From Escherichia coli (GTDB taxonomy: Bacteria > Pseudomonadota > Gammaproteobacteria > Enterobacterales > Enterobacteriaceae): DNA of 64,000 nucleotides. Numbering within the stretch: position 1 is the stretch's first letter; each line of letters starts with the position of its first letter. The notes under the pieces are model-generated. The model did not search any database. It saw only the letters and a list, made by a program, of their open reading frames with translations, and was not told the origin of the DNA. The stretch lies in the NCBI RefSeq assembly GCF_030384885.1, contig NZ_CP128613.1, one strand, 5' to 3'. The translations under genes and the position numbers were made by a program. Shown piece after piece: positions 1 through 63,560 of this stretch.

Positions 1-289
1 GCAGCACTGAGTCTACCATGGACATTACACGTTCAACTTCACCACCGAAGTCGGCGTGCCCCGGGGTATCAACGATGTTGATACGGTAATCATTCCATTT
101 GATAGCGGTGTTTTTCGCGAGGATGGTAATCCCACGCTCTTTCTCCAAATCGTTGGAGTCCATCACGCGCTCTTGGGTTTCGGCACGAGAGTCGAACGTA
201 CCAGATTGTTGGAGCAGCTTGTCTACCAGGGTGGTTTTACCATGGTCTACGTGCGCGATGATGGCGATATTACGCAATTTTTCGATCAC
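1..289 (-). CDS. typA: GTP-binding protein TypA/BipA, N-terminal portion only (gene continues beyond window start)
   Basis: Reverse complement of 1-289 translates to a translational-GTPase N-terminus ([16 protein letters not shown]... G1 motif, [15 protein letters not shown]3 motif); initiation appears to be GTG at 287-289. The + strand track ORF 56..337 is the antisense frame of this gene. Confidence 0.85.
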
Positions 290-440
290 AACTTTGCCTC
301 AGGCATTAGAAATAGCGCGTTATTGTACACGGATTAATCGCACTACAAAACAGGATCACAAACATCCTCCGCAAACAAGTATTGCAGAGTCCCTTTGTGA
401 TCGCTTTCACGGAGCATAAAAAGGGTTATCCAAAGGTCAT

Positions 441-523
441 TGCACCAATATGGTGCTTAATGTTTCCATTGAAGCACTATATTGGTGCAACATTCACATC
501 ATGGTGCAGCCCTTTTGCACGAT
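441..523. promoter_or_regulatory. NtrC (NRI) enhancer-like binding sites upstream of glnA
   Basis: TGCACCAATATGGTGCT at 441-457 and GCACTATATTGGTGCAA at 473-489 fit the dyad TGCACCA-N3-TGGTGCA; a weaker copy lies at about 501-523. Position upstream of the glnA sigma-54 promoter matches the known architecture. Confidence 0.7.
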
Positions 524-562
524 GTTAAGCATGATAACGCCTTTTAGGGGCAATTTAAAAGT

Positions 563-578
563 TGGCACAGTTTTCGCT
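563..578 (+). promoter_or_regulatory. sigma-54 promoter (glnAp2-like), -24 GG / -12 GC
   Basis: TGGCACAGTTTTCGCT: GG at 564-565 and GC at 576-577 with the canonical 12-nt register, about 85 bp upstream of the glnA ATG. Confidence 0.75.
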
Positions 579-661
579 TTATCTTTTTTACGGCGACACG
601 GCCAAAATAATTGCAGATTTCGTTACCACGACGACCATGACCAATCCAGGAGAGTTAAAGT

Positions 662-2071
662 ATGTCCGCTGAACACGTACTGACGATGCTGAACGAGCAC
701 GAAGTGAAGTTTGTTGATTTGCGCTTCACCGATACCAAAGGTAAAGAACAGCACGTCACTATCCCTGCTCATCAGGTGAATGCTGAATTCTTCGAAGAAG
801 GCAAAATGTTTGACGGCTCCTCGATTGGCGGCTGGAAAGGCATTAACGAATCCGACATGGTGCTGATGCCAGACGCATCCACCGCAGTGATTGACCCGTT
901 CTTCGCCGATTCTACCCTGATTATCCGTTGCGATATCCTTGAACCAGGCACCCTGCAAGGCTATGACCGTGACCCGCGTTCCATCGCGAAGCGCGCTGAA
1001 GATTACCTGCGTTCTACTGGCATTGCCGACACCGTACTGTTCGGGCCAGAACCTGAATTCTTCCTGTTCGATGACATCCGTTTCGGATCTTCTATCTCCG
1101 GTTCCCACGTTGCTATCGACGATATCGAAGGCGCATGGAACTCCTCCACCCAATACGAAGGTGGTAACAAAGGTCACCGTCCGGCAGTGAAAGGCGGTTA
1201 CTTCCCGGTGCCACCAGTAGACTCTGCTCAGGATATTCGTTCTGAAATGTGTCTGGTGATGGAACAGATGGGTCTGGTGGTTGAAGCCCATCACCACGAA
1301 GTAGCGACTGCTGGTCAGAACGAAGTGGCTACCCGCTTCAATACCATGACCAAAAAAGCTGACGAAATTCAGATCTACAAATATGTTGTGCACAACGTGG
1401 CGCACCGCTTCGGTAAAACCGCGACCTTTATGCCAAAACCGATGTTCGGTGATAACGGCTCCGGTATGCACTGCCACATGTCGCTGTCTAAAAACGGCGT
1501 TAACCTGTTCGCAGGCGACAAATACGCAGGTCTGTCTGAGCAGGCGCTGTACTACATTGGCGGCGTAATCAAACACGCTAAAGCGATTAACGCCCTGGCA
1601 AACCCGACCACCAACTCTTATAAGCGTCTGGTCCCGGGCTACGAAGCACCGGTAATGCTGGCTTACTCTGCACGCAACCGTTCTGCGTCTATCCGTATTC
1701 CGGTGGTTTCTTCTCCGAAAGCACGTCGTATCGAAGTCCGTTTCCCGGACCCAGCGGCTAACCCGTACCTGTGCTTTGCTGCCCTGCTGATGGCCGGTCT
1801 TGATGGCATCAAGAACAAGATCCACCCAGGCGAAGCCATGGACAAAAACCTGTATGACCTGCCGCCAGAAGAAGCGAAAGAGATCCCACAGGTTGCAGGC
1901 TCTCTGGAAGAAGCACTGAACGAACTGGATCTGGACCGCGAGTTCCTGAAAGCCGGTGGCGTGTTCACTGACGAAGCCATTGATGCGTACATCGCTCTGC
2001 GTCGCGAAGAAAATGACCGCGTGCGTATGACTCCGCATCCGGTAGAGTTTGAGCTGTACTACAGCGTCTAA
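662..2071 (+). CDS. glnA: glutamine synthetase (type I)
   Basis: 469-aa ORF with SD GGAGAG upstream; sequence recognised as GlnA ([31 protein letters not shown]...). Confidence 0.98.
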
Positions 2072-2131
2072 TAGTTGAAGTTGTACTACCCGGTGCAAAG
2101 AAGGCCGGGATTTAGTTGCCGTGGAAACTTT

Positions 2132-2158
2132 CAGCCCATCTCTGCATGGGCTTTTTTC
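2132..2158 (+). terminator. rho-independent terminator downstream of glnA
   Basis: Stem GCCCAT (2134-2139) / ATGGGC (2146-2151) followed by a T-run (cttttttct). Confidence 0.6.
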
Positions 2159-2245
2159 TCCGTAACTTCTTTGATGCTTCGCGCTTTTTATCCGTAAAAA
2201 GCTATAATGCACTAAAATGGTGCAACCTGTTCAGGAGACTGCTTT

Positions 2246-3295
2246 ATGGCAACAGGCACGCAGCCCGATGCTGGGCAGATCCTCAACTCGCTGATTAACA
2301 GTATTTTGTTAATCGATGACAACCTGGCGATCCATTACGCCAACCCCGCCGCGCAACAACTGCTCGCCCAAAGCTCCCGCAAATTGTTTGGTACACCGTT
2401 ACCGGAACTGTTGAGCTACTTCTCATTAAATATCGAGCTGATGCAAGAAAGTCTGGAGGCGGGGCAAGGTTTTACCGATAACGAAGTGACGCTGGTCATC
2501 GACGGGCGCTCGCATATCCTTTCTGTGACGGCCCAGCGTATGCCGGACGGCATGATCCTGCTGGAGATGGCACCGATGGATAACCAGCGCCGCTTAAGTC
2601 AGGAACAGCTACAGCACGCCCAGCAGGTTGCTGCCCGTGATTTAGTGCGCGGCCTGGCACATGAGATTAAAAATCCGCTTGGCGGTTTACGTGGTGCAGC
2701 GCAGCTGCTCAGCAAAGCATTACCTGACCCGTCACTGCTGGAATATACCAAAGTGATTATTGAACAGGCGGATCGGCTGCGAAATCTGGTCGACCGTCTG
2801 TTGGGGCCGCAACTGCCCGGTACGCGCGTTACCGAAAGTATTCACAAAGTGGCTGAACGCGTGGTGACGCTGGTGTCGATGGAACTGCCGGACAACGTGC
2901 GGTTGATTCGTGATTACGACCCCAGCCTGCCGGAACTGGCGCACGATCCGGATCAAATTGAACAGGTATTGCTGAATATTGTGCGCAATGCGCTACAGGC
3001 GCTGGGGCCGGAAGGTGGTGAAATCATTCTGCGTACCCGCACCGCGTTTCAACTGACCTTACACGGCGAGCGCTATCGGCTGGCGGCGCGGATTGATGTG
3101 GAAGATAACGGGCCAGGCATTCCGCCTCATTTGCAGGATACGCTGTTTTACCCGATGGTCAGCGGCCGCGAAGGTGGCACCGGGCTTGGCTTATCCATCG
3201 CCCGTAATTTGATTGATCAGCATTCAGGCAAAATTGAATTTACCAGTTGGCCAGGTCATACCGAGTTCTCGGTTTACCTGCCTATCAGGAAATAA
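2246..3295 (+). CDS. glnL: nitrogen regulation sensor histidine kinase NtrB (NRII)
   Basis: 349-aa ORF with the histidine kinase H-box ([11 protein letters not shown]) and an ATP-binding G-box; sits between glnA and glnG. Confidence 0.97.
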
Positions 3296-3306
3296 AGGTG
3301 ACGTTT

Positions 3307-4716
3307 ATGCAACGAGGGATAGTCTGGGTAGTCGATGACGATAGTTCCATCCGTTGGGTGCTTGAACGTGCGCTCGCTGGAGCGGGTTTAACCTGTACGA
3401 CATTTGAGAACGGCGCGGAAGTACTGGAGGCGCTGGCGAGCAAAACGCCGGATGTGCTGCTTTCAGATATCCGTATGCCGGGAATGGACGGGCTTGCGCT
3501 GCTCAAGCAGATTAAACAGCGCCATCCGATGCTTCCGGTCATCATTATGACCGCACATTCCGATCTGGATGCTGCCGTCAGCGCCTATCAACAAGGGGCG
3601 TTTGATTATCTGCCCAAACCATTTGATATCGACGAAGCCGTGGCGCTGGTTGAGCGCGCCATCAGCCATTATCAGGAACAGCAGCAACCGCGTAATGTTC
3701 AGCTTAACGGCCCGACGACCGATATCATCGGCGAAGCGCCAGCCATGCAGGACGTGTTCCGGATTATCGGTCGGCTTTCACGTTCTTCTATTAGCGTGCT
3801 GATTAACGGCGAATCCGGCACCGGTAAAGAACTGGTCGCTCATGCCCTGCATCGCCACAGTCCTCGAGCCAAAGCGCCGTTTATCGCGCTGAATATGGCG
3901 GCTATCCCGAAGGATTTGATCGAATCAGAACTGTTCGGTCACGAGAAAGGCGCGTTTACCGGCGCGAATACTATTCGTCAGGGGCGTTTTGAACAGGCCG
4001 ATGGCGGCACGTTATTCCTCGATGAAATTGGCGATATGCCGCTCGATGTACAGACGCGTTTGCTGCGCGTGCTGGCAGACGGTCAGTTTTATCGCGTTGG
4101 CGGCTATGCGCCGGTGAAAGTGGATGTGCGGATTATCGCTGCGACCCATCAGAATCTCGAACAGCGGGTACAGGAAGGCAAGTTCCGTGAGGATTTGTTC
4201 CACCGCCTGAACGTTATCCGCGTTCATCTGCCGCCATTGCGCGAGCGTCGGGAAGATATTCCCCGCCTGGCGCGCCATTTCCTGCAGGTTGCCGCGCGCG
4301 AACTGGGCGTAGAAGCGAAGTTGCTGCATCCGGAAACCGAAGCCGCGCTGACGCGTCTGGCGTGGCCGGGTAACGTACGCCAGCTGGAAAACACCTGTCG
4401 CTGGCTAACGGTGATGGCCGCCGGGCAGGAAGTGTTGATTCAGGATTTGCCTGGCGAACTGTTTGAATCAACCGTAGCGGAAAGCCCTTCGCAATTACAG
4501 CCGGACAGTTGGGCAACGCTGTTAGCGCAGTGGGCAGACAGAGCGCTGCGTTCCGGTCATCAAAACCTGCTTTCCGAAGCGCAGCCTGAGCTTGAGCGGA
4601 CGTTACTGACGACCGCGTTGCGACATACGCAGGGGCATAAACAGGAAGCGGCGCGGCTGCTTGGCTGGGGTCGCAACACACTGACACGTAAGTTAAAAGA
4701 GCTGGGGATGGAGTGA
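3307..4716 (+). CDS. glnG: nitrogen regulation response regulator NtrC (sigma-54 activator)
   Basis: Receiver domain ([18 protein letters not shown]), AAA+ sigma-54 activation domain ([14 protein letters not shown] motif) and C-terminal HTH; start taken at ATG 3307 ([11 protein letters not shown]) rather than the longer track ORF. Confidence 0.97.
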
Positions 4717-41116: not shown

Positions 41117-41884
41117 ATGGCAGATACCTCTTCAACCACCGCTGGCGCACAAACGTTATTACGCGGGCTGGCGGTTCTTAATGCTGTTTATAACGGCTGC
41201 CATGACCTGAAAAGTATCGGCGAGTTCACCGGCACGACCCGGAGCACAACCCATCGTTTAGTCACCGTTCTGGTGGAACAACGCTACCTGCGCCACGTCC
41301 CAACGCAGGGCTACCAACTGGGCGCCAAACTGATCGAATTCGGTGCCAGAGCGCTGGAAAGCACCTCGCTGTACGAAATTGCGCTGCCCGTTTTGCAGCG
41401 TCTGGCCCGTTACACCCTGGACACCGTGCATCTGGGGATCGTTGAAGGCGACGAAGTGCTGTATCTGGAGAAGATCAACAGTCAGCGTGGGCTGGAAATG
41501 CGCTCACGCCCAGGCCATCGCATGCCACTGGCAATCACCGGCATCGGCAAGGCATTGATCCTCAACCGAACAGAAGAAGAGTGGCGCACGCTGTTTAAGA
41601 CCTGTGGTGATGAAACAAAACTGGGCACATTTATTCAGAACATGCGTCGTTATGCCGCCAGTGGTTTTGCTTTTGATCTGGAAGAGAACGAGCCGACTAT
41701 CCGTTGCGTTGCAGCGCCGGTTTACAACGCCCGGGATGAAATTGTGGCGGCTATTTCTGTCGCCAGTACCACTACGTATATGTCACTGGCGCGTCTGGAA
41801 GAACTGGCACCTTACGTCAAATCCTGTGCAGAAGAGATATCCGCTGAACTGGGCTGGGGTAAGCACGTCCGCAAAAATAAATAA
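41117..41884 (+). CDS. IclR-family transcriptional regulator
   Basis: 255-aa ORF from MADTSS with SD AGGAGA; N-terminal wHTH (LRGLAVLNAV...IGEFTGTTRSTTHRLVTVLVEQRYL) and C-terminal IclR effector domain pattern. Confidence 0.85.
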   Translation: MADTSSTTAGAQTLLRGLAVLNAVYNGCHDLKSIGEFTGTTRSTTHRLVTVLVEQRYLRHVPTQGYQLGAKLIEFGARALESTSLYEIALPVLQRLARYTLDTVHLGIVEGDEVLYLEKINSQRGLEMRSRPGHRMPLAITGIGKALILNRTEEEWRTLFKTCGDETKLGTFIQNMRRYAASGFAFDLEENEPTIRCVAAPVYNARDEIVAAISVASTTTYMSLARLEELAPYVKSCAEEISAELGWGKHVRKNK

Positions 41885-41907
41885 ACCATGACTAAAGGAA
41901 ACGGCTA

Positions 41908-42912
41908 ATGTCGGGAAACACCTCATTTATTGCCCTGGACTGGGGAACGTCATCGCTTCGGGCATGGCGTTTTGGCGACTCACCAAATCCACAAGAAAAA
42001 CGTGAATTCCCGTGGGGGATCATGAAATTACCCTCCCAGGCAGCAACACGTGAGGACGCTTTCCACGATACGTTTTTACGTGTCTGCGGCGACTGGCTGG
42101 CACAATCCCCATGCCCGATTCTGGCTTGCGGCATGATCGGCAGTGCGCAAGGGTGGCAACCCGCAGCTTATTTACCTTGCCCGGTCACTCTCGAGGGTCT
42201 GGCAAAGCAGTTGACGCCTGTTATCTACCAGCAGCAGACAATGCTGCACATCATTCCCGGCGTGATTAAAGAAGGTGAAATGCCCGAAGTGATGCGTGGC
42301 GAAGAGACACAAATCTTCGGTGCTATCTCGATGGAACCGGCCCTGCAAAACGCGCTCCGCCAGGGTATGCCTGTGCTGATTGGCTTACCTGGCACACATG
42401 CGAAATGGGCGGTAGTTGAAAACAACACCATTACCGATTTTCGAACCTTTATGACAGGCGAGTTATTTGATGTTTTATCCCGCCATTCGATTCTCGGTGC
42501 CACCATGCGTTCGGGAGATGAACCGCACTGGGATGCCTTCGCCCACGGGCTGACAGCGGCACAAGAGCATCATCAGACCGGATTATTATCGACGCTGTTT
42601 TCGACCCGTTCGCGCCTGCTGACCAGTAATCTTACGCCGTCCTCACAGGGGGATTACCTTTCAGGATTACTGATAGGCCATGAATTATGCGGTCTGGCAT
42701 CCAGTTTGCTACGTGATTTACCCGCCACAACACCGATCGCCTTAATCGGTAGCGCCACTCTGAACAGCCGCTATTCACAAGCATTCAGCCACGTTTTTCC
42801 CGACAGACAGCTACACGCCATTCCTAATGCCACTGAACAGGGGTTATGGCGAATCGCCCACGCTGCCGGGCTACTCTCCACCAACGCCAGGGAATGTACT
42901 CATGCCATTTAA
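41908..42912 (+). CDS. 2-dehydro-3-deoxygalactonokinase-like sugar-acid kinase (DgoK family)
   Basis: 334-aa ORF sharing the motifs I recall from DgoK: ALDWGTSSLRAW, MRGEETQ, PGTHAKW, FRTFMTGELF. Confidence 0.85.
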   Translation: MSGNTSFIALDWGTSSLRAWRFGDSPNPQEKREFPWGIMKLPSQAATREDAFHDTFLRVCGDWLAQSPCPILACGMIGSAQGWQPAAYLPCPVTLEGLAKQLTPVIYQQQTMLHIIPGVIKEGEMPEVMRGEETQIFGAISMEPALQNALRQGMPVLIGLPGTHAKWAVVENNTITDFRTFMTGELFDVLSRHSILGATMRSGDEPHWDAFAHGLTAAQEHHQTGLLSTLFSTRSRLLTSNLTPSSQGDYLSGLLIGHELCGLASSLLRDLPATTPIALIGSATLNSRYSQAFSHVFPDRQLHAIPNATEQGLWRIAHAAGLLSTNARECTHAI

Positions 42913-43531
42913 TACGCTTTTGCAAAAAACCGGGTTAGTCGCCATTTTACGCGGCGTGAAACCGGATGAGATTGTCGCCATCGGTGAAAAGCTGTATGCC
43001 GCTGGATTTCGCCTGATTGAGATTCCCATGAACTCGCCGGAGCCGTTGCAAAGTATCAGTTTACTGCGCGACGCCCTGCCTAAGGACTGCCTGGTCGGAG
43101 CCGGAACGGTGCTTTCGGTGGAGCAAGTCGTCGCGGTTAAAGAGGCTGGAGGCCAGATTATCGTAATGCCGCATTGCGATACTGCGGTGATCCGTCGTGC
43201 CCGTGCGCTGGGTATGTATTGTGCGCCTGGCGTCGCTACGCCCACCGAAGCTTTTGCTGCCATTGAACATGGCGCCAATGCCATCAAGCTGTTCCCGGCT
43301 GAACAAATTACGCCTGAAGTCACCAAAGCCTGGCGTGCGGTTATTCCACAATCCGTTCCGATGTTACCGGTTGGCGGTATCACTCCAGACACAATGGCGC
43401 GTTATCTGAGCCACGGCGCAAACGGCTTTGGCCTCGGTTCTGCGCTATATCGCCCCGGCATGACGCCAGAGCAAGTCTATGAAAATGCAGTACTGTTTAT
43501 GAACGCATGGAACAATTTAAATAGCAAATAA
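42902..43531 (+). CDS. 2-dehydro-3-deoxy-6-phosphogalactonate / KDPG-type aldolase (DgoA/Eda family)
   Basis: About 209-aa ORF from MPFNTLLQKTGLVAILRG; class I aldolase TIM-barrel pattern (EIPMNSP, GAGTV, KLFPA, GGIT). Start overlaps the kinase 3' end by 11 bp. Confidence 0.85.
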   Translation: MPFNTLLQKTGLVAILRGVKPDEIVAIGEKLYAAGFRLIEIPMNSPEPLQSISLLRDALPKDCLVGAGTVLSVEQVVAVKEAGGQIIVMPHCDTAVIRRARALGMYCAPGVATPTEAFAAIEHGANAIKLFPAEQITPEVTKAWRAVIPQSVPMLPVGGITPDTMARYLSHGANGFGLGSALYRPGMTPEQVYENAVLFMNAWNNLNSK

Positions 43532-43555
43532 CTGATAAATAAGGATATAAAAGCA

Positions 43556-44530
43556 ATGATAAAACATCTTACCTTACCGAAAAAAATGGCTGCAATGGTA
43601 CTTCTTGCCGGCGCTGCCCTCAGCACTGCGCCTGTGCAGGCGGCCTCCTGGCCAACCAAACAGATCGAGTTAGTCGTACCCTACGCGGCCGGAGGCGGTA
43701 CGGATCTGGTTGCCCGTGCCTTTGCTGATGCCGCCAAAAACCATTTGCCCGTCAGCATCGGGGTTATCAATAAACCTGGCGGTGGCGGCGCTATCGGCCT
43801 GAGTGAAATCGCCGCTGCCCGCCCTAACGGTTACAAAATGGGTTTAGGCACGGTTGAACTGACCACCCTTCCCAGTCTCGGAATGGTGCGTTTTAAAACC
43901 AGCGACTTTAAACCCATTGCCCGTCTGAATGCGGATCCTGCGGCTATCACCGTCCGTGCCGATGCACCGTGGAATAGCTATGAAGAATTTATGACTTACG
44001 CCAAAGCGAATCCCGGAAAAGTACGCATTGGTAACTCAGGCACCGGAGCAATCTGGCATCTGGCGGCAGCTGCACTGGAAGACAAAACGGGCGTGAAGTT
44101 TTCTCATGTCCCATATGACGGCGCAGCCCCTGCCATTACAGGCCTGTTAGGCGGGCATATTGAAGCGGTTTCCGTAAGCCCAGGTGAAGTTATCAATCAT
44201 GTGAAAGGCGGCAAGCTGAAGACACTGGTAGTGATGGCGGATGAACGTATGAAAACCATGCCTGACGTCCCGACGTTAAAAGAGAAAGGCGTTGATCTCT
44301 CCATCGGCACCTGGCGCGGCCTGATTGTGTCGCAAAAAACGCCGCAGGATGTGGTTGATGTTCTGGCTAAGGCCGCAAAAGAGACGGCTGAAGAGCCTGC
44401 ATTCCAGGATGCTCTGCAAAAGTTGAATCTCAACTATGCATGGCTTGATGGTGCCAGCTTCCAGACCCAAATCAACGAACAGGAAAAGTACTTTGACGAG
44501 TTACTAACTCGGCTGGGCTTGAAAAAATAA
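43556..44530 (+). CDS. tripartite tricarboxylate transporter substrate-binding protein (TctC/Bug family)
   Basis: 324-aa ORF with signal peptide (MIKHLTLPKKMAAMVLLAGAALSTAPVQA) and the TctC-type motifs ...VVPYAAGGGTD..., ...NKPGGGGAIG.... Confidence 0.85.
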   Translation: MIKHLTLPKKMAAMVLLAGAALSTAPVQAASWPTKQIELVVPYAAGGGTDLVARAFADAAKNHLPVSIGVINKPGGGGAIGLSEIAAARPNGYKMGLGTVELTTLPSLGMVRFKTSDFKPIARLNADPAAITVRADAPWNSYEEFMTYAKANPGKVRIGNSGTGAIWHLAAAALEDKTGVKFSHVPYDGAAPAITGLLGGHIEAVSVSPGEVINHVKGGKLKTLVVMADERMKTMPDVPTLKEKGVDLSIGTWRGLIVSQKTPQDVVDVLAKAAKETAEEPAFQDALQKLNLNYAWLDGASFQTQINEQEKYFDELLTRLGLKK

Positions 44531-44546
44531 TCCCGAGGTACGGTCG

Positions 44547-45053
44547 ATGAACACAAAACAGTCTGTTGCTCAACTCGCCGTACCGCACCGCAAGCGCTTT
44601 TCATCCACTGTGGTGGTGGCGCTGTTACTTTGTGTGGTTGCTGGCGCGGTGATAATTAATGCCGCTGATTTTCCAGCAACTGCCATTGAAACGGATCCCG
44701 GTGCAAGTGCCTTCCCTACTTTCTATGCCTGCGCTCTGATTGTGCTCGCTGTCTTACTGGTGATACGCGATCTTTTGCTGGCAAAACCAGTCCCTTGCGC
44801 CAACGCACAGGAAAAACCGGCATTCAGGAAAACGGCAACGGGAATTGCGGCAACCGCGTTTTATATTGTGGCGATGAGCTACTGCGGTTATCTCATTACT
44901 ACTCCTGTTTTCCTCATCGTCATTATGACGTTGATGGGCTACAGGCGATGGGTACTCACACCGGGTATTGCGCTGCTGTTAACGGCAATCCTCTGGTTGC
45001 TGTTTGTCGAAGCGTTACAGGTGCCATTGCCTGTCGGCACATTTTTCGAATAA
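44547..45053 (+). CDS. tripartite tricarboxylate transporter small membrane subunit (TctB-like)
   Basis: 168-aa hydrophobic protein with about 4 TM segments, positioned between tctC-like and tctA-like genes. Confidence 0.75.
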   Translation: MNTKQSVAQLAVPHRKRFSSTVVVALLLCVVAGAVIINAADFPATAIETDPGASAFPTFYACALIVLAVLLVIRDLLLAKPVPCANAQEKPAFRKTATGIAATAFYIVAMSYCGYLITTPVFLIVIMTLMGYRRWVLTPGIALLLTAILWLLFVEALQVPLPVGTFFE

Positions 45054-45065
45054 CAGGGGCCTGCA

Positions 45066-46556
45066 ATGTTTGAAAGTGAACTTTTAACTCAGGGGTTTTC
45101 GACATTACTCAGTAATCCTCAGGCGCTGCTGTTTGCCACGTTTGGAGTGATACTGGGTATTATGATTGGCGCTCTGCCTGGCCTGACAGCGACCATGGGT
45201 GTGGCGATTTTGCTGCCTTTCACCTACGGCATGGAGCCTGTTTCTGGCTTGTTGATGATTTGCGGTGTCTTTTTTGGTGGTGTGTATGGTGGTTCTATCA
45301 CCGCAATTTTGCTCAAAATTCCCGGTACGCCTGCCGCCGCTGCCACCGCCATTGACGGTTATGAGTTAACGAAGCAGGGAAAAGCCGGGCTGGCATTAAG
45401 TGCCGCCACGTTCTCTTCTTTTAGCGGTGGAACGCTCAGCATTATCGTATTGATGTTTCTCTCTCCGGTACTTGCCAGTTGGGCGTTGAAATTTAGTGCC
45501 TCGGAGTCCTTCGCCCTGGCAACCTTCGGACTAAGTATTATTGCCAGTATTTCCGGTGAGTCACTGATTAAAGGGCTGATTGCCGGGGTTGGCGGATTAC
45601 TGATCGCAACGATAGGCCTCGATCCGATGGGCGGTTTTCCACGCTTTACGGGCGGGTTTGTGGAACTGATGAATGTGCCATTTATCCCGGTGATGATTGG
45701 TCTGTTTGCTGCTTCAGAAGCGTTCCGTTCTATGGAACAAAATCAGCATATTCGTCAGAGCGCGAACGTGGCTATCGGCAGTCTGTTACTGCCCTGGCAA
45801 ACGCTACGCCGCATCGCATTAACCATTTTGCGCTCATCAGGATTAGGGGTTTTTATCGGCATGATCCCCGGTGCGGGGGCAGATATTGCAGCTTTTGTTG
45901 CCTATAACGAAACTCGTCGTTTCAGTAAGACGCCTGAAAACTTTGGTAAGGGTGAGATTAAGGCGGTGGCCTCCTGTGAGGCAGGCGCGAATGGCTGCAC
46001 CGGTGGCGCATTGTTACCTATGCTGACGTTGGGGATCCCAGGCGATGCGGTAACTGCCATCATGCTGGGCGCGTTAACGTTACAAGGGATGCAGCCAGGC
46101 CCACTGATGTTTACCGACCACGGCGATATGGTTTATACGCTGTTTGTCGGCATGATCTTTTGTTACTTCATGCTGCTAGTTCTTGGACTGCTCTCTTTGA
46201 AAGTCATCGGTAACGTGGTGAAGATCCCCGGCAATATTCTCACGCCGATGATCCTCGCACTTTGTGTGGTCGGGACTTATGCGTTGAACAATAGCCTGTT
46301 TGATGTTGGCATTATGCTGATTGCAGGCGTGGTGGGCTATTTCATGCAAAAAGGGGGGTATCCGGCATCACCCGTAGTGCTGGCATTGATTATGGGGCCA
46401 ATGGCGGAAAGTAATTTTCGCCGTGCGCTGTCGCTTTCTGGTGGGTCACTCGACTTTCTGTATACCCGACCGATAACCCTGGCATTGCTGACACTGGCAG
46501 CCTTTACGCTACTGACGCCAATAATACGCAAAATTATGCGCTTACGGCGTCAGTAA
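45066..46556 (+). CDS. tripartite tricarboxylate transporter large permease (TctA family)
   Basis: 496-aa polytopic membrane protein with Gly-rich TM segments typical of TctA (GALPGLTATMGVAILLPFTYGM, GGSITAILLKIPGTPAAAAT). Confidence 0.9.
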   Translation: MFESELLTQGFSTLLSNPQALLFATFGVILGIMIGALPGLTATMGVAILLPFTYGMEPVSGLLMICGVFFGGVYGGSITAILLKIPGTPAAAATAIDGYELTKQGKAGLALSAATFSSFSGGTLSIIVLMFLSPVLASWALKFSASESFALATFGLSIIASISGESLIKGLIAGVGGLLIATIGLDPMGGFPRFTGGFVELMNVPFIPVMIGLFAASEAFRSMEQNQHIRQSANVAIGSLLLPWQTLRRIALTILRSSGLGVFIGMIPGAGADIAAFVAYNETRRFSKTPENFGKGEIKAVASCEAGANGCTGGALLPMLTLGIPGDAVTAIMLGALTLQGMQPGPLMFTDHGDMVYTLFVGMIFCYFMLLVLGLLSLKVIGNVVKIPGNILTPMILALCVVGTYALNNSLFDVGIMLIAGVVGYFMQKGGYPASPVVLALIMGPMAESNFRRALSLSGGSLDFLYTRPITLALLTLAAFTLLTPIIRKIMRLRRQ

Positions 46557-47792: not shown

Positions 47793-48605
47793 ATGGCAAC
47801 AACACAACAATCTGGATTTGCACCTGCTGCATCACCTCTCGCTTCGACCATCGTTCAGACCCCGGATGACGCGATTGTAGCAGGCATCACCTCTATCCCT
47901 TCACAAGGGGATAACATGCCTGCTTACCATGCCAGACCAAAGCAGAGCGATGGCCTACTACCAGTGGTCATTGTAGTGCAGGAAATTTTTGGCGTGCATG
48001 AACATATCCGCGATATTTGTCGCCGTCTGGCGCTGGAGGGGTATCTGGCTATCGCACCTGAACTTTACTTCCGCGAAGGCGATCCGAATGATTTTGCCGA
48101 TATCCCTACGCTGCTTAGCGGTCTGGTAGCAAAAGTGCCTGACTCGCAGGTGCTGGCCGATCTCGATCATGTCGCCAGTTGGGCGTCACGCAACGGCGGC
48201 GATGTTCATCGCTTAATGATCACCGGATTTTGCTGGGGTGGACGTATCACCTGGCTATATGCTGCGCATAACCCGCAACTGAAAGCGGCGGTGGCATGGT
48301 ACGGCAAACTGACAGGCGATAAGTCGCTGAATTCACCGAAACAACCTGTTGATATCGCAACCGATCTTAACGCGCCGGTTCTCGGCTTATATGGTGGTCA
48401 GGATAACAGCATTCCGCAGGAGAGCGTTGAAACCATGCGCCAGGCGCTGCGGGCTGCTAATGCGAAAGCAGAGATTATCGTCTACCCGGATGCCGGGCAT
48501 GCATTCAACGCCGATTATCGCCCGAGCTATCATGCTGAGTCGGCGAAAGATGGCTGGCAGCGTATGCTGGAGTGGTTTAAGCGGTATGGTGGGAAACGGA
48601 ATTAG
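47793..48605 (+). CDS. ysgA: dienelactone hydrolase-family protein YsgA
   Basis: About 270-aa ORF from MATTQQSGF; alpha/beta hydrolase with nucleophile elbow GFCWGG. Confidence 0.9.
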   Translation: MATTQQSGFAPAASPLASTIVQTPDDAIVAGITSIPSQGDNMPAYHARPKQSDGLLPVVIVVQEIFGVHEHIRDICRRLALEGYLAIAPELYFREGDPNDFADIPTLLSGLVAKVPDSQVLADLDHVASWASRNGGDVHRLMITGFCWGGRITWLYAAHNPQLKAAVAWYGKLTGDKSLNSPKQPVDIATDLNAPVLGLYGGQDNSIPQESVETMRQALRAANAKAEIIVYPDAGHAFNADYRPSYHAESAKDGWQRMLEWFKRYGGKRN

Positions 48606-48996
48606 TTTCCTCTTATTCTATATTTGAGATGGTGAGTGAACGAATGCGTTTTGCTGCCATCTCTGTCCCCCAAAAAATAATCAGTATGAATTGATTGGAG
48701 AGCACGACTCCGCTATTTGACCTTAAGAAAGTCGGCAAGTCATAGTCATAAATGAGTCTCTTCACTGGCAGACACCTTAAAGATTTACCATCAACTCCCA
48801 TTCTCAAACAAACATTAATTATTATCAACACATTCACATTAATTATAAATTACCTCAGACCTTCCTGATAAAAAGATATTAAAGTGAAACATTTTGTTTT
48901 TCACATTTTAGTTCATCCCTTTTAGGCGTAAATAAAGGTAAAAAATAACAATACTATTTTTCTTTCACAAAAAAATTAACAAAAGGTTTTTCAAGG

Positions 48997-50145
48997 ATGA
49001 GTGATATTATCTACCTGACCATAACCGGAGAACAACACGGATGTATTTCCTCTCGTTGTGGAACGAGCACATCAATAGGTAATCGCTGGCAGATTGGTCA
49101 TGAAGATGAAATCTTCGCATTCTCGCTCTCTAATAGTATTACGAATACAGGAAAAGGGTCACATTTGCATGGCCTTAGTTTCTGTAAGTTGATTGACAAA
49201 AGCTCCCCGTTACTTATTAACGCTATTAACAATAACGAGCAGTTGTTCATGGAGTTTGACTTCTATCGGATCAATAGATTTGGTCGATGGGAGAAATATT
49301 ACAACATTCAACTCCGCGGCGCGCTCTTATCAGCAATCAATCACCTGTTTACGGAGAACAATCTGGATACAGAAACCATCACTGTCAGTTATGAATATAT
49401 ACTCTCCAGGCATCTGATTGCTAATACTGAATTTAGTTATTTGGCATTTCCCGATAACTACAATCGTCTGTTTATACCACGGCCAAAAACTAAAGATGAT
49501 AATGGCCTCAAAACACTCAATAGTAAAGCTGTTGGCAGACTGCTTGCTGCTGGCGGCATATACAATGGGAATATCGAAGGATTCAGGGAAACAGCAAACA
49601 AGTTGGGGGGAGATGCACCTGCTGGTTACGATCAAGTTATGGATAACAAAGGGTTACTCATCGCTGGTGCTTCAATAGTTGCTGGAGCAGTTCTGGGGAG
49701 AATGAGACTCCCTGATTTGGAATCACTTGAGCATTTCGGAGCCAGAGGAGCAGTATCAGGAAGACCATTTAATCCCGACCTTGCCGGTGGTCCAATAGAA
49801 AATCTGACGACAGATGGCGTAACAATCAACAGGGAAGGTATCGCTATTGTTGAAAAACACATAGCCAGATTTGGTCATGACCCTGTAAATGAAGTGATGA
49901 TCAATAGACTGAAAGACATTGAGAAAGGAAAAATCCCCCCAGAACAAGTAGATCTTAACTTCTATACTCATGAATGTCGGGAATATCAGCGTTACTGTAA
50001 TCTTGGTTGGGAAACAGGACAACCTGATGGTGACGCAGGCTATGCACTCTGGAATCATACGCATACTGCTACTCTAGAAGATTATAAACTTAAGGGAGAA
50101 CTTAATGACTTATACCACCAGGACGCACTTGACTATGATAACTGA
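48997..50145 (+). CDS. Hcp (T6SS tube protein, TssD) fused to a C-terminal extension; candidate evolved-Hcp toxin effector
   Basis: 382-aa ORF. The N-terminal ~160 aa follow the Hcp pattern (ITGEQHG...NRW..GHEDEIFAFS...KLIDKSSPLLINAI...EFDFYRIN) as I recall it; then a Gly-rich linker and a ~130-aa His/Cys-containing C-terminal region. Low GC and AT-rich upstream region. Confidence 0.8.
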   Translation: MSDIIYLTITGEQHGCISSRCGTSTSIGNRWQIGHEDEIFAFSLSNSITNTGKGSHLHGLSFCKLIDKSSPLLINAINNNEQLFMEFDFYRINRFGRWEKYYNIQLRGALLSAINHLFTENNLDTETITVSYEYILSRHLIANTEFSYLAFPDNYNRLFIPRPKTKDDNGLKTLNSKAVGRLLAAGGIYNGNIEGFRETANKLGGDAPAGYDQVMDNKGLLIAGASIVAGAVLGRMRLPDLESLEHFGARGAVSGRPFNPDLAGGPIENLTTDGVTINREGIAIVEKHIARFGHDPVNEVMINRLKDIEKGKIPPEQVDLNFYTHECREYQRYCNLGWETGQPDGDAGYALWNHTHTATLEDYKLKGELNDLYHQDALDYDN

Positions 50146-50380
50146 AACTGAAATTAACATACTGAAAGTTATGGCTGAGAAAGATATAAACTGGAACTGG
50201 ATGAATCTCGATCGCACACTATCTATAAGGCAAATTCCAGGATTCGGTAATGTTGTTAACATTGTTAACAAATTAGCTAACGAGGGTTTGGTTATTATTG
50301 AGGATAGCGGACATAAGTCTATGCCTCACTACCACGTTACTGATAAGGGATACAATCTCGTGAAAAGTGAGAATAAATAA
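50135..50380 (+). CDS. small protein downstream of the Hcp fusion; candidate immunity protein (alternative: small wHTH-like protein)
   Basis: 81-aa ORF (MITETEINILKVMAEKD...), or 91 aa from the upstream ATG at 50105. Its start overlaps the Hcp-fusion stop (ATGATAACTGA), the arrangement seen in toxin/immunity pairs. Confidence 0.5.
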   Translation: MITETEINILKVMAEKDINWNWMNLDRTLSIRQIPGFGNVVNIVNKLANEGLVIIEDSGHKSMPHYHVTDKGYNLVKSENK

Positions 50381-50527
50381 CGTAGCGTTGATTACTGAAC
50401 AAATCGCTCAGGATTATATTTTGCGAAAAAAATGATTCGGTTATTTCTGTGTCTGAACGGCCGCAGATAGCAAAATGGCTTCCGGTGATGGAAGCCATCA
50501 GATTATTGGCAAAGTGCGTGTTGTTCA

Positions 50528-50562
50528 TGCCGGATGCGGCGTGAACGCCTTATCTGGCCAAC
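50528..50562. repeat. REP element
   Basis: GCCGGATGCGGCGTGAACGCCTTATCTGGCC. Confidence 0.5.
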
Positions 50563-50666
50563 TAAATCTTGAAAATTCAATAAATTGAATAAATTATGTA
50601 GACTTGGTATCAGGCAGTTTTGCCTCTTTCATCGTACTGCAATTTACAGTGACTCGTTAATACTCA

Positions 50667-52928
50667 TCACCCCCGACGCAAATTCTGCGCCGCCTGCACC
50701 ATGTTCGCCAGTGCCGCGCGGGTTTCTGGCCAGCCGCGCGTTTTCAGACCACAGTCCGGGTTGACCCACAGACGCTCTGCCGGAATGCGTTTTGCCGCTT
50801 TCTTCAGCAGGGCTTCAATCCATTCCACGCTCGGTACGTTTGGCGAGTGAATGTCATAGACGCCAGGACCGATTTCATTTGGATAATCAAACTCTTCAAA
50901 CGACTCCAGCAACTCCATGTCGGAACGCGAGGTTTCGATTGTGATGACGTCTGCGTCCAGCGCCGCAATCGAATCCATGATGTCGTTGAACTCGCAGTAA
51001 CACATGTGAGTGTGGATTTGCGTGTCATCTTTCGCTACGGCAGCGTTGATACGGAAAGCCTCCACGCCCCACTGGAGATAGGCATCCCAGTCGCTGCGAC
51101 GCAGCGGTAAACCTTCGCGTAGCGCCGGTTCATCAATCTGGATGATGCCAATTCCAGCGGCTTCCAGATCGGCCACTTCATCACGAAGCGCCAGCGCAAT
51201 TTGTTTGGCGATGGTTTCACGGCTGACATCTTCACGCGGGAACGACCAGCAGAGAATGGTCACCGGGCCAGTCAGCATCCCTTTCACCGGTTTGTCGGTC
51301 AGCGATTGCGCATACTTTGCCCACTCCACGGTAATCGGTGCCGGGCGGCTAACGTCACCAATGACAATCGGCGGTTTCACGCAGCGGGAACCGTAGCTCT
51401 GTACCCAACCGTTTTGTGTAAAGACAAAACCGTCGAGGTGCTCACCAAAGTATTCCACCATGTCATTACGCTCGGCCTCACCATGCACCAGCACATCCAG
51501 ACCCAGACGTTCCTGCTCAACAATGGCCTGCTTGATATGTTCTGCAATGCCCGTACGATAGTTGTTGGCGTCGAGATTACCCTTTTTGAAATCCAGACGC
51601 AGGGTACGGATTTCTGTGGTTTGCGGGAAAGAGCCAATCGTGGTGGTCGGCCACGCGGGCAGTTTAAAACGCGCACGCTGGGCTTCAGCACGCACTTCAT
51701 AGACATTCGCACGCTGACTGTCCTGGGCGGTGATCGCCGCCAGACGCTTTTCTACTGCCGGATTATGTACACGAGTAGAGTGACGACGCGCCTGAATCGG
51801 TGCACTCCACTCTGCCAGAGCTGCCGTGTCACCACTGTTCAGCGCATCGCGCAGCAATGCCAGTTCATGGCATTTTTGCAGGGCGAAGGCAAACCAGCTT
51901 TTCACTTCTGCATCAAGACGCGTTTCCACGCTCAGGTCGATAGGGCTGTGCAGCAATGAGCAGGAAGATGCCACCCACAAATCACGTTTGCCGACAATGT
52001 CCTTAATTTGCGCATATTTCTCGGTAAGATCGGCGCGCCAGACGTTACGACCATTGATAAGACCCGCAGACAGCAGCCAGTCAGAAGGCAGACGCTTGTG
52101 CAGTTCAGCAACGTCATCTTTACCATGTACGAGATCGACATGCAGCCCCTGAACAGGCAGCGCAGTAATGGTGTCGAGGTTTGGCGTTACGCCTTCAAAA
52201 TAGGTGGTCAGCAGCAGTTTCACCTGGCCCTGGAGCGCGTCGTAAGCGGGTTTATAGGCGTCCAGCCACGCCTGCGGCAGTTCCAGCACCAGTGCGGGTT
52301 CGTCGATCTGTACCCACTCAATGCCACGTTTTGCCAGTTCTGCCAACACTTGCTGATAAACCGGCAGAATGTCGTTTAGCAGGCTCAGGCGATCAAACTG
52401 TTCACCTTTCACTTTACCCAGCCACAGGTAGGTAACCGGTCCCAGCAGCACGGGCTTGACCTTGTGGCCCAGCGCCAGCGCCTCGTCCACTTCCTCCAGC
52501 AGCTGCGTCCAGGTCAGTTTGAACTGTTGGCCTTTAACGAACTCCGGCACCATGTAGTGATAGTTGGTGTTAAACCATTTGGTCATTTCCGCTGCCGCCG
52601 CAGGTTCGCCAGTCGGCGCACGTCCACGACCAATACGGAACAGGGTGTCGATATCTACCGAACCATCTTTGTTCTGATGACGTGGCGGAACGTTACCCAG
52701 CAGCAGACTGGTGGTCAGTACATGATCGTACCAGGCAAAATCGCCCACCGGCAGCAGGTCGATACCCGCTTGCTTTTGTTGATCCCAGTGACGAGCACGC
52801 AGTTCACGCCCTACCGCCAGCAGTTCTTCACGCGTGGTGTTCCCGGCCCAATAACTCTCTTGCGCTTTTTTCAGCTCGCGACGCAGGCCAACGCGAGGGA
52901 AACCGAGGGTGTGATTCAATATTGTCAT
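50667..52928 (-). CDS. metE: cobalamin-independent methionine synthase
   Basis: 753-aa ORF ([30 protein letters not shown]...). Confidence 0.97.
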
Positions 52929-63179: not shown

Positions 63180-63560
63180 ATGAGTAAGGAATATATGAAC
63201 GATGGTTCATTAAGTGAAAAATGGAAATATCGCTTTAGTTTTTATGATCAACATGGCTTTCCTGGATTCTGGGGGGCAACACCAGAATATAAAGCAGCAT
63301 TTAAAGCATTAAAAGTAAGACAACGATTAACTATTCAAATTAATTTCATTGCTTTCTTCTGTTCCTGGATCTATCTATTTGTTCTGGGTTTATGGAAAAA
63401 AGCAATTATAGTTCTATTACTTTGCATTCTATCTCTATTTGTTGGTGCACTAATTGGCGTTAACATTTTGGGAATTGCCGTAGCAGCCTATGTTGCTGTT
63501 AACACGAACAAATGGTTTTATGAGAAAGAGGTAAAAGGGTTAAATACCTGGAGCCTTTGA
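63180..63560 (+). CDS. yigF: DUF2628 inner membrane protein YigF
   Basis: 126-aa ORF from MSKEYMNDGSLSEKWKYRF with SD GGAG; two predicted TM helices. Confidence 0.8.
   Translation: MSKEYMNDGSLSEKWKYRFSFYDQHGFPGFWGATPEYKAAFKALKVRQRLTIQINFIAFFCSWIYLFVLGLWKKAIIVLLLCILSLFVGALIGVNILGIAVAAYVAVNTNKWFYEKEVKGLNTWSL

Follow-up and report, generated by a model that had tools for sequence, protein, structure and literature searches.

Introduction

An Hcp protein is classed as evolved when it carries a C-terminal extension of more than 60 amino acids (aa) (Howard et al.). Hcp-ET1 of Escherichia coli O104:H4/55989 is described as an orphan Hcp with an HNH/colicin-DNase C-terminus that is neutralised by ETI1, and is an experimentally validated DNase effector delivered by T6SS2, a type VI secretion system (T6SS). 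Hcp-ET3, Hcp-ET4 and Usp combine an N-terminal Hcp with Pyocin_S/IMT and a colicin-type DNase, and for T6EC4, an orphan Hcp of Citrobacter koseri, toxicity and rescue were both demonstrated by experiment (Geller et al. 2024). Here, we describe a two-gene module located between ysgA and metE in a 64,000-nucleotide stretch of E. coli DNA (assembly GCF_030384885.1, contig NZ_CP128613.1; hereafter, the window). The module is likely a horizontally acquired evolved-Hcp (Hcp-ET) effector-immunity cassette for type VI secretion. Its architecture is already known; the new part is the toxin domain, which is uncharacterised.

Results

Domain organization of the effector gene

The features of the module, with the evidence that defines each of them, are as follows.

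48997-50145, plus strand: evolved-Hcp effector gene, 382 aa, intact (open reading frame; end-to-end alignment with homologues)
48997-49437, plus strand: Hcp/TssD tube-protein domain, aa 1-147 (TIGR03344, PF05638, solved Hcp structures)
49438-49650, plus strand: conserved linker, aa 148-218, LNSKAVGRLLAAGGIYNGN...GGDAPAGY (alignments)
49651-49701, plus strand: hydrophobic Gly/Ala-rich segment, aa 219-235, GLLIAGASIVAGAVLGR (Kyte-Doolittle hydropathy)
49729-50130, plus strand: predicted toxin core, aa 245-378, all-alpha (homologue matches, AlphaFold2)
49935-49940, plus strand: C6 homopolymer inside the toxin gene (C5 in strain 2013C-4282)
50135-50380, plus strand: predicted cognate immunity gene, 81-aa winged-helix protein (conserved overlap, co-variation, AlphaFold2)

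A preliminary description of this DNA had proposed a 382-aa open reading frame (ORF) with an N-terminal Hcp domain, a Gly-rich linker, a C-terminal domain of about 130 aa and an overlapping small ORF downstream. Each of these elements was recovered. The ORF itself is present in the ORF list at 48997-50145; its product aligned over the full length with Citrobacter homologues of 382 aa (80-81% identity), and the exact 382-aa protein is recorded on 503 contigs. Residues 1-147 matched TIGR03344 with a score of 121.6 bits (cut-off 58.9, E 2.9e-35), and the domain also matched Pfam PF05638 (E 7e-14) and the solved Hcp 6a2v (E 2e-13). TssD was the only match when the protein was searched against NCBIfam. 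The extension that follows the Hcp domain amounts to 235 aa, well above the 60 aa that define an evolved Hcp.

The linker contains LNSKAVGRLLAAGGIYNGNIEGF, followed by GGDAPAGY, and is common to YhhZ/Hcp-ET1-type proteins and to proteins with non-Hcp carrier domains. The same linker precedes unrelated C-terminal domains or other toxins, as in homologue P0235. A recombination junction lies at about aa 207-218, and DNA homology to the yhhZ paralogue stops at nucleotide (nt) 621. Judged by these alignments, the linker appears to behave as a portable pre-toxin module. The stretch comprising aa 148-235 (49438-49701) also matched two phage families of unknown function, phrog_31266 (E 9e-16) and phrog_14497 (E 2e-15).

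The Gly-rich part of the protein corresponds to aa 219-235, where the Kyte-Doolittle mean of 1.85 over 17 aa is the maximum of the whole protein. Homologues, including one with a different toxin, keep a hydrophobic stretch at this position. The segment is possibly membrane-inserting.

Relationship to YhhZ/Hcp-ET1 and other evolved Hcps

A DNA search with the Hcp and linker portion of the gene (nt 1-654) yielded two groups of genomes. The locus type described here was found at 90% identity or more in 845 genomes, while some 3,600 genomes shared no more than nt 1-621 with the query, at about 75% identity, which corresponds to the yhhZ locus. The latter has the gene order yhhY-tssD-yrhA-yrhD-yrhB-ggt and is present in DH5alpha, BL21 and O104:H4. 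Proteins of the YhhZ type are nearly colinear with the window protein up to about aa 213 and diverge from it completely beyond that point: they run on into the HNH-like motif HHKLSLDDGGTN, and the window protein runs into a domain of its own. The O104:H4 yhhZ-locus protein gave a weak Pfam HNH match (E 0.013), and the window protein gave none. Since O104:H4 contains one sole match to the Hcp-plus-linker query, we infer that its yhhZ-locus gene is Hcp-ET1; given this assignment, homology of the window protein to a validated evolved-Hcp member extends to about aa 213.

The Citrobacter orthologue of this protein is encoded at the locus equivalent to that of yhhZ (gntR-yhhW-yhhX-yhhY … ggt-yhhA-ugpQ), and in some Citrobacter it stands in tandem with a second Hcp that bears an HNH-type toxin. 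Because the Hcp domain and linker are shared, the C-terminus is divergent and the Citrobacter synteny points to the yhhZ locus, the window gene is best read as a yhhZ/Hcp-ET1 paralogue in which the toxin and immunity cassette has been exchanged, that is, as a member of the same polymorphic family located at a second chromosomal site. In one Citrobacter tandem array (locus L005, 5108-9399), the HNH-type Hcp toxin and several small ORFs, one of them Imm35, lie upstream of the orthologue.

The window gene thus resembles Hcp-ET1/YhhZ, represented in O104:H4, 55989, STEC004 and K-12 (Ma et al. 2017; Blondel et al. 2009), in being an orphan evolved Hcp outside any T6SS cluster, with an immunity gene directly downstream and a hydrophobic stretch after the linker. 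The two differ in the toxin, which is an HNH/His-Me finger in YhhZ (PMC5714182) and an all-alpha domain without an HNH motif in the window protein; in the immunity protein (YrhA of 164 aa versus an 81-aa winged-helix protein); in the locus (yhhY-ggt versus ysgA-metE); and in prevalence (about 3,600 versus 848 of 5,426 genomes). Hcp-ET3, Hcp-ET4 and Usp likewise join an N-terminal Hcp to a bacteriocin-type cytotoxic module, and the toxin family of the window protein is also found on S-type pyocins and colicins. In contrast to these proteins, however, the window protein has no Pyocin_S match (E <= 10) and has the linker and hydrophobic segment instead, and its toxin is not Colicin-DNase. The likeness to T6EC4 comprises an orphan evolved Hcp, a toxin domain without a Pfam family and an adjacent immunity gene. 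T6EC4 was rejected as a carrier of the same toxin: it resembles Tox-REase-5, which has an alpha/beta nuclease fold, whereas the window domain is all-alpha and has no structural match.

The predicted toxin domain

The toxin core of about 135 aa matched 553 clusters (defined at 50% identity) at E <= 1e-3 in a search of 1.84 billion representatives, and the matches to aa 245-378 were nearly always located at the C-terminus of the matched protein. The suspicion that this domain might be uncharacterised was borne out in every collection searched. No Pfam match was obtained either with the single sequence or across a 36-member alignment, and the precomputed Pfam lists of 120 homologues contained only Hcp or DUF8093, both of them N-terminal families; a separate Pfam search with one DUF8093 homologue was likewise uninformative. 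Neither NCBIfam nor PADLOC returned anything for the domain, and PHROGs returned only the unknown-function families on the linker. In the PDB, no relative was found by single sequence, profile or fold, the sequence matches being at chance level. No paper on the domain was found, the set of about 350 extended Hcps of Ma et al. 2017 lying outside the comparison.

AlphaFold2 modelling based on a 36-sequence alignment gave a confident structure, with a mean predicted local distance difference test (pLDDT) value of 92.8 and a predicted template modelling score (pTM) of 0.85. The modelled core is essentially all-alpha and consists of a short beta-hairpin region followed by four long and two short helices. 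Residues kept in at least 33 of the 36 homologues include R256, H288, R291, N298, R304, D319, Y323 and H325, as well as E326, E329, R332, W352, H356, E361 and H374. When these residues were placed on the predicted secondary structure, all four long helices were found to bear conserved polar residues, a pattern that would fit a catalytic or metal site within the helical bundle, as judged from the secondary-structure string and not from coordinates.

Assignment of the domain as an HNH DNase was rejected. It is suggested by legacy NCBI names only ("colicin", "HNH endonuclease") and conflicts with the all-helical model and with the lack of an HNH match: neither HNH nor Colicin-DNase matched the window protein even at E <= 10, and one of the 36 homologues gave an HNH_4 match (E 0.087). 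Nuclease bacteriocins have five described cytotoxic classes, namely the HNH DNases, the pyocin S3-type DNases, the E3 rRNases and the colicin D and colicin E5 tRNases (Sharp et al. 2017); the toxin domain gave no Pfam profile match to any of the five.

Carriers of the toxin domain

Among AFDB50 entries, 119 matched the toxin domain at E <= 1e-3, PAAR and RHS proteins included. Many of the matches, from Serratia, Salmonella, Klebsiella, Pectobacterium, Yersinia and Pseudomonas, are labelled "S-type pyocin", "pyosin/cloacin translocation domain" or "colicin". RHS cores were confirmed by NCBIfam on two long homologues of the toxin. Two other homologues, P0127 and P0147, have Gly/Ala-rich hydrophobic segments at their N-termini; one of the two has a PAAR-like region by eye, and a Ralstonia PAAR-domain protein is among the AFDB50 matches. 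These segments parallel the hydrophobic segment of the window protein and recall the transmembrane (TM)-bearing PAAR effectors, in which the carrier is PAAR and not Hcp. Effectors of the Tse6 class, which are PAAR proteins, deliver cytoplasmic toxins.

A tblastn search located the toxin domain on 35 plasmids, including 5.8-kb ColE1-type Klebsiella plasmids and 7-kb E. coli plasmids. Plasmid pKSB1_9A_5 encodes a 780-aa protein in which Pyocin_S (aa 494-631) is followed directly by the toxin domain at the C-terminal end; downstream are an 87-aa ORF, an orphan DNase-type immunity gene and a lysis gene. The bacteriocins of pKSB1_9A_5 and of p7 of E. coli O22:H8 have the same toxin family as the window protein (47-48% identity over about 130 aa, TM-score of about 0.85) and a small immunity-type ORF directly after the toxin. 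They differ from the window protein in their route, which is release by a lysis gene and receptor/IMT import versus T6SS, and the 87-aa ORF of pKSB1_9A_5 is not detectably homologous to the window immunity protein; as a candidate homologue it was rejected at 24% identity in a forced alignment. These Col-plasmid bacteriocins appear to be uncharacterised and unnamed. The Klebsiella locus lies at 59-3377 of the 5.8-kb plasmid NZ_AP024178.1, and O22:H8 p7 likewise encodes such a bacteriocin, of colicin- or klebicin-like type.

Import across the inner membrane requires the Pyocin_S (IMT) domain, which shows a strong association with cytotoxic domains of the nuclease type (Atanaskovic et al. 2022). 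On the basis of this IMT link, the TM-bearing PAAR homologues, the hydrophobic segment of the window protein and an immunity protein that has neither a signal peptide nor a TM segment, we conclude that the toxin probably acts in the cytoplasm. The locus also shows the properties expected of a polymorphic toxin, with a junction at about aa 207-218, alternative toxins, multiple carriers and orphan immunity genes.

The linker-toxin-immunity cassette was also observed behind non-Hcp N-termini in Cronobacter, Pantoea and Enterobacter (loci L008, L010, L024 and L025). These N-termini are DUF8093 and a domain of about 140 aa without a family, and the loci are stand-alone, with no secretion genes nearby. 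An Atlantibacter tandem array (L023, 1301-4393) contains two DUF8093-toxin genes of different subtypes, each with its own immunity gene.

The predicted immunity gene

In the ORF list, the small ORF at the end of the toxin gene begins at 50105 (91 aa); other genera share the ATG at 50135 as the start, which gives an 81-aa product and an overlap of 11 nt with the toxin stop. The same 11-nt overlap is present in Citrobacter. A homologous ORF of 81-97 aa, with an ATG start that gives a 4-17-nt overlap with the toxin stop, follows all ten toxin genes inspected in seven genera (E. coli, two loci; Citrobacter; Salmonella; Atlantibacter, two; Enterobacter; Cronobacter, two; Pantoea). Pairwise identities of the toxin cores and of the small ORFs are correlated (Pearson r = 0.75 for 45 pairs, uncorrected for phylogeny). 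Three variants of the toxin C-end (…ALNYDN, …DATK/ALK and …DAPSW/PLW) pair with three ORF subtypes, and they do so independently of the carrier, whether Hcp, DUF8093 or the third N-terminal domain. Extra, unpaired immunity copies were observed 3' of the toxin in E. coli 28Eco12, Nissle and N1, in Citrobacter and in Cronobacter.

AlphaFold2 modelling of a 258-residue toxin-(GGGGS)6-ORF fusion gave a pTM of 0.79, with pLDDT values of 91-97 in the ORF part, whose topology (HHH-EE-H) is that of a winged helix. For undocked domains, the pTM of the fused chain would by our own estimate be roughly 0.55-0.6; the modelled value would be hard to reach without confident relative placement of the two partners, which suggests docking. 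No signal peptide or TM segment was found in the 81-aa protein (hydropathy maximum 1.05). Its Pfam matches to winged-helix families were weak (HTH_45, E 0.054; EarA, E 0.15). Many copies are labelled "MarR family transcriptional regulator" by NCBI. The protein is about half as long as a MarR protein, and no MarR model of Pfam or NCBIfam matched it; the label reflects the fold and not a demonstrated function. Taken from its sequence context and the model, the 81-aa protein is predicted to be the cognate immunity protein.

The insertion site

The module occupies a foreign insert, the borders and surroundings of which are listed below.

48596-50668, strand not applicable: foreign insert, 2,073 bp, 39.3% guanine-plus-cytosine (GC); homology to an empty-site genome ends at 48595 and restarts at 50669
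47793-48605, plus strand: left flank ysgA, dienelactone hydrolase family, last codons rewritten by the insert
48606-48996, plus strand: AT-rich upstream region, 32% GC, presumed promoter of the module (GC measure)
50523-50559, minus strand: one REP-type repeat within the right end of the insert (naRNA4 match)
50667-52928, minus strand: right flank metE, convergent with the module, unaltered

The empty-site reference was avian pathogenic E. coli (APEC) E19057 (locus L003), in which ysgA and metE are convergent with about 38 bp between them. In most complete E. coli genomes the flanks alone matched, about 480 bp apart in total, as expected from the claim that the module is inserted between these two genes. 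The span claimed for the module began at 48606. An insert is indeed present, and its left border lies slightly earlier, at 48596, since the last codons of ysgA are rewritten: the YsgA C-terminus reads …GGKRN in the window versus …GGKKSL in empty-site strains. Alignment to the empty site showed that about 53 bp of ysgA-metE intergenic DNA is replaced by the insert, including a GC-rich terminator hairpin, which is bidirectional and common to the two genes.

The GC content of the window is 0.30-0.45 over about 48600-50550 and 0.52-0.58 in the flanks. By direct measure, it is 0.393 for the insert, 0.539 for ysgA and 0.555 for metE, in good agreement with a value of about 40 percent that had been judged by eye. 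Low GC and a site that is mostly empty in E. coli support a foreign origin of the insert. No meaningful flanking direct repeats, insertion sequence (IS) element or integrase was found at the insert. In the upstream region, consensus promoter matches were not in excess (8, against 5.9 +/- 2.8 in shuffled sequence), and a terminator scan likewise gave no excess over shuffled controls. The sole Rfam match was a sub-threshold one to REP-derived naRNA4, in a stretch with matches at many sites in each genome.

Published work shows the ysgA-metE interval to be a hotspot for insertions, occupied by the 16-kb tkt1 island in B2 extraintestinal pathogenic E. coli (ExPEC) (Li et al. 2012, PMC3349570). Three "hypothetical" ORFs listed next to metE in that paper have sizes that fit the immunity gene and fragments of the toxin and of Hcp, a correspondence that rests on size and position and not on alignment. 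In Nissle 1917 and N1, hxlB-ptsG-tkt is found on one side, and the metE side holds an hcp-toxin pseudogene and two small ORFs. In E2348/69, the tkt island is present and the hcp module is not.

Distribution in E. coli and the T6SS context

The toxin and immunity region is present in 848 of 5,426 complete E. coli genomes (about 16%). In 118 of these, among them O145:H28 RM13516, identity is at least 95%, which corresponds to the 382-aa subtype of the window. About 725 genomes have 80-90% identity and represent a 377-aa subtype with an 85-aa immunity gene of its own, plus an orphan immunity copy about 86% identical to the window immunity protein. In Nissle 1917 (L021, 2501-4208), the hcp-toxin gene of the 377-aa subtype is a pseudogene and both immunity genes are intact, a layout that would give protection without a weapon. 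UTI89 has the same two-immunity layout, and its toxin fragment in the databases is truncated.

The whole window is 99.989% identical to the corresponding interval of E. coli 2013C-4282 (NZ_CP027579.1), from which it differs by five substitutions and two single-base indels. In the annotation of that genome, the 64-kb interval, from glnA to corA, contains ordinary core genes and no T6SS core gene, in line with the preliminary description, which had found none in the window and supposed that the module would depend on a T6SS encoded elsewhere. Such a system does exist in 2013C-4282: a complete T6SS cluster adjoins tRNA-Asp (aspV) at 2.46-2.49 Mb, at a distance of about 960 kb from the module, and includes tssB, C, E, F, G, tagH, tssJ, K, L, H, vasI, tssA, tssM, two hcp genes, vgrG and an RHS gene. 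The Hcp domain of the window protein is 42% identical to the 159-aa Hcp of this cluster and 26% identical to the other one. Dependence on a T6SS encoded elsewhere is therefore plausible. A group II intron and a damaged ISAs1 transposase adjoin the Rhs end of the aspV cluster.

Because 2013C-4282 has C5 where the window has C6 (49935-49940), its toxin gene is annotated as frameshifted. The other indel, G6 in the window (63271-63276) versus G5, breaks yigF in 2013C-4282 only. Since both indels lie in homopolymers and break genes only in 2013C-4282, comparison of the two sequences suggests that the frameshifts are assembly errors rather than real pseudogenes.

Discussion

If the module is an effector-immunity cassette, its Hcp domain would be built into, or would ride with, a T6SS tube fired into neighbouring bacteria, the apparatus being encoded elsewhere. 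The linker and the hydrophobic Gly-rich segment may help the C-terminal domain to cross the inner membrane of the prey, in whose cytoplasm the all-alpha domain of about 135 aa would act as an enzyme, probably a metal- or His/Glu-dependent hydrolase. Nuclease activity is the foremost guess, and a guess only. In the producer and its kin, the 81-aa winged-helix protein would bind and neutralise the toxin. Such a cassette could have originated by exchange within a polymorphic-toxin family, with the Hcp domain and linker as in yhhZ/Hcp-ET1 and another toxin/immunity pair; this pair would circulate on Rhs, PAAR and DUF8093 carriers, and on colicin-like bacteriocins with other immunity proteins.

Several points weigh against the cassette interpretation. 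Toxicity, secretion and immunity are all deduced by computation; the identity correlation takes no account of shared ancestry, and the pTM of a fused chain is an indirect proxy for docking. With a mean net charge of -3.7 among the 36 homologues (range -15 to +3; -9 in the window copy), the toxin core is acidic to neutral, which is unusual for DNases and RNases and atypical of colicin-type nucleases, and the nuclease guess is therefore weak. About 725 of the 848 carriers have the other toxin subtype, an internal stop is present in both B2-type genomes inspected (Nissle 1917 and N1), and the toxin fragments of UTI89 and APEC O1 in the databases are truncated; these internal stops and fragments suggest frequent decay of the toxin with retention of immunity. 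The Hcp-toxin gene differs from that of 2013C-4282 by one base in the C-run, and in the aspV cluster the gene of a VasL-domain protein (L017, 37152-38562) carries an annotated frameshift, which may leave the apparatus non-functional in that strain. Finally, Hcp-ET1 is reported to be delivered via T6SS2, and the aspV cluster, the only T6SS identified in the sibling genome, may be of another type.

The same observations bear on the possibility that the module is a remnant kept mainly for defence, in which the immunity protein protects against kin or plasmid toxins and the Hcp-toxin is no longer delivered, either for lack of a compatible or working T6SS or through silencing in an AT-rich, H-NS-type context. 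The prevalence of the other subtype, with its interrupted or truncated toxins beside immunity genes that are both intact where inspected, speaks for it, as do the frequency of truncated toxins in the databases (clusters of 180, 229 and 286 aa; an IS1 fusion in Shigella) and of orphan immunity genes, and the sibling genome with its one-base toxin frameshift and frameshifted VasL-domain gene. We nevertheless consider this explanation unlikely for the window copy, which is intact over 382 codons, aligns end to end across genera and is found as the exact intact protein on those 503 contigs; the two single-base differences from the sibling, both in homopolymers, point to assembly error rather than decay. 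A role of the Hcp-like domain outside type VI secretion, in an intracellular toxin-antitoxin or abortive-infection-type module or in release by another route, is harder still to credit. Orphan evolved Hcps such as YhhZ and Usp may not be T6SS-linked (Blondel et al. 2009), the module is about 960 kb away from the T6SS cluster, yhhZ paralogues persist in K-12-derived strains and BL21, which a review describes as lacking T6SS genes, and the same cassette is found behind non-Hcp N-terminal domains of unknown function. However, Hcp-ET1, with the same Hcp and linker, was later reported to be T6SS2-delivered; the toxin domain otherwise occurs on interbacterial scaffolds (Rhs, PAAR and bacteriocins with lysis genes); and no PADLOC model of anti-phage defence matched the module.

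The least probable explanation, to which we give hardly any weight, concerns the 81-aa ORF, which could encode a small transcription factor of the MarR or winged-helix type that regulates the toxin gene and does not confer immunity. The NCBI naming of many copies, the weak HTH_45 and EarA matches and the predicted HHH-EE-H topology are in keeping with a regulator. On the other hand, the length is about half that of MarR, with no MarR model matched in Pfam or NCBIfam; stop-overlap coupling in ten of ten loci, co-variation of subtypes and orphan tandem copies are hallmarks of immunity; and the fused-chain pTM suggests direct docking on the toxin. The effector-immunity cassette for type VI secretion thus remains our preferred interpretation.

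A further proposal, which we put forward tentatively and regard as possible but rather doubtful, is that the toxin domain founds an undescribed class of interbacterial toxins, with a new all-alpha fold, an activity outside the nuclease classes, miniature winged-helix immunity and use by both T6SS and bacteriocins. In such a class, a helical bundle would have each of its four helices contribute a conserved His, Glu, Asn or Arg, and the activity could, for example, consist in hydrolysing a nucleotide or a cofactor or in modifying a protein, which the acidic surface would suggest. The domain would be deployed by Hcp, PAAR, Rhs and plasmid bacteriocins and would be the sixth IMT-linked cytotoxic domain.

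The toxin domain is widespread on T6SS, Rhs and colicin-like scaffolds in Enterobacterales, Pseudomonas and beyond, and knowledge of its chemistry would allow many toxins to be annotated together and might uncover a new target for antibacterials. Carriage of the module, together with the layouts of Nissle 1917 and UTI89, bears on who kills whom in gut competition. As a compact two-gene E. coli system, the module would be suited to tests of Hcp-toxin loading and of inner-membrane crossing.

An accessory islet elsewhere in the window

Between rmuC and udp (41117-46556), the window contains an accessory islet with genes for an IclR-family regulator, a 2-dehydro-3-deoxygalactonokinase, a KDPGal-type aldolase and a TctC/B/A tripartite tricarboxylate transporter. 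At the rmuC-udp position of APEC O1, an islet of roughly 5 kb and six ORFs, of unknown function, was described previously (Li et al. 2012, PMC3349570).

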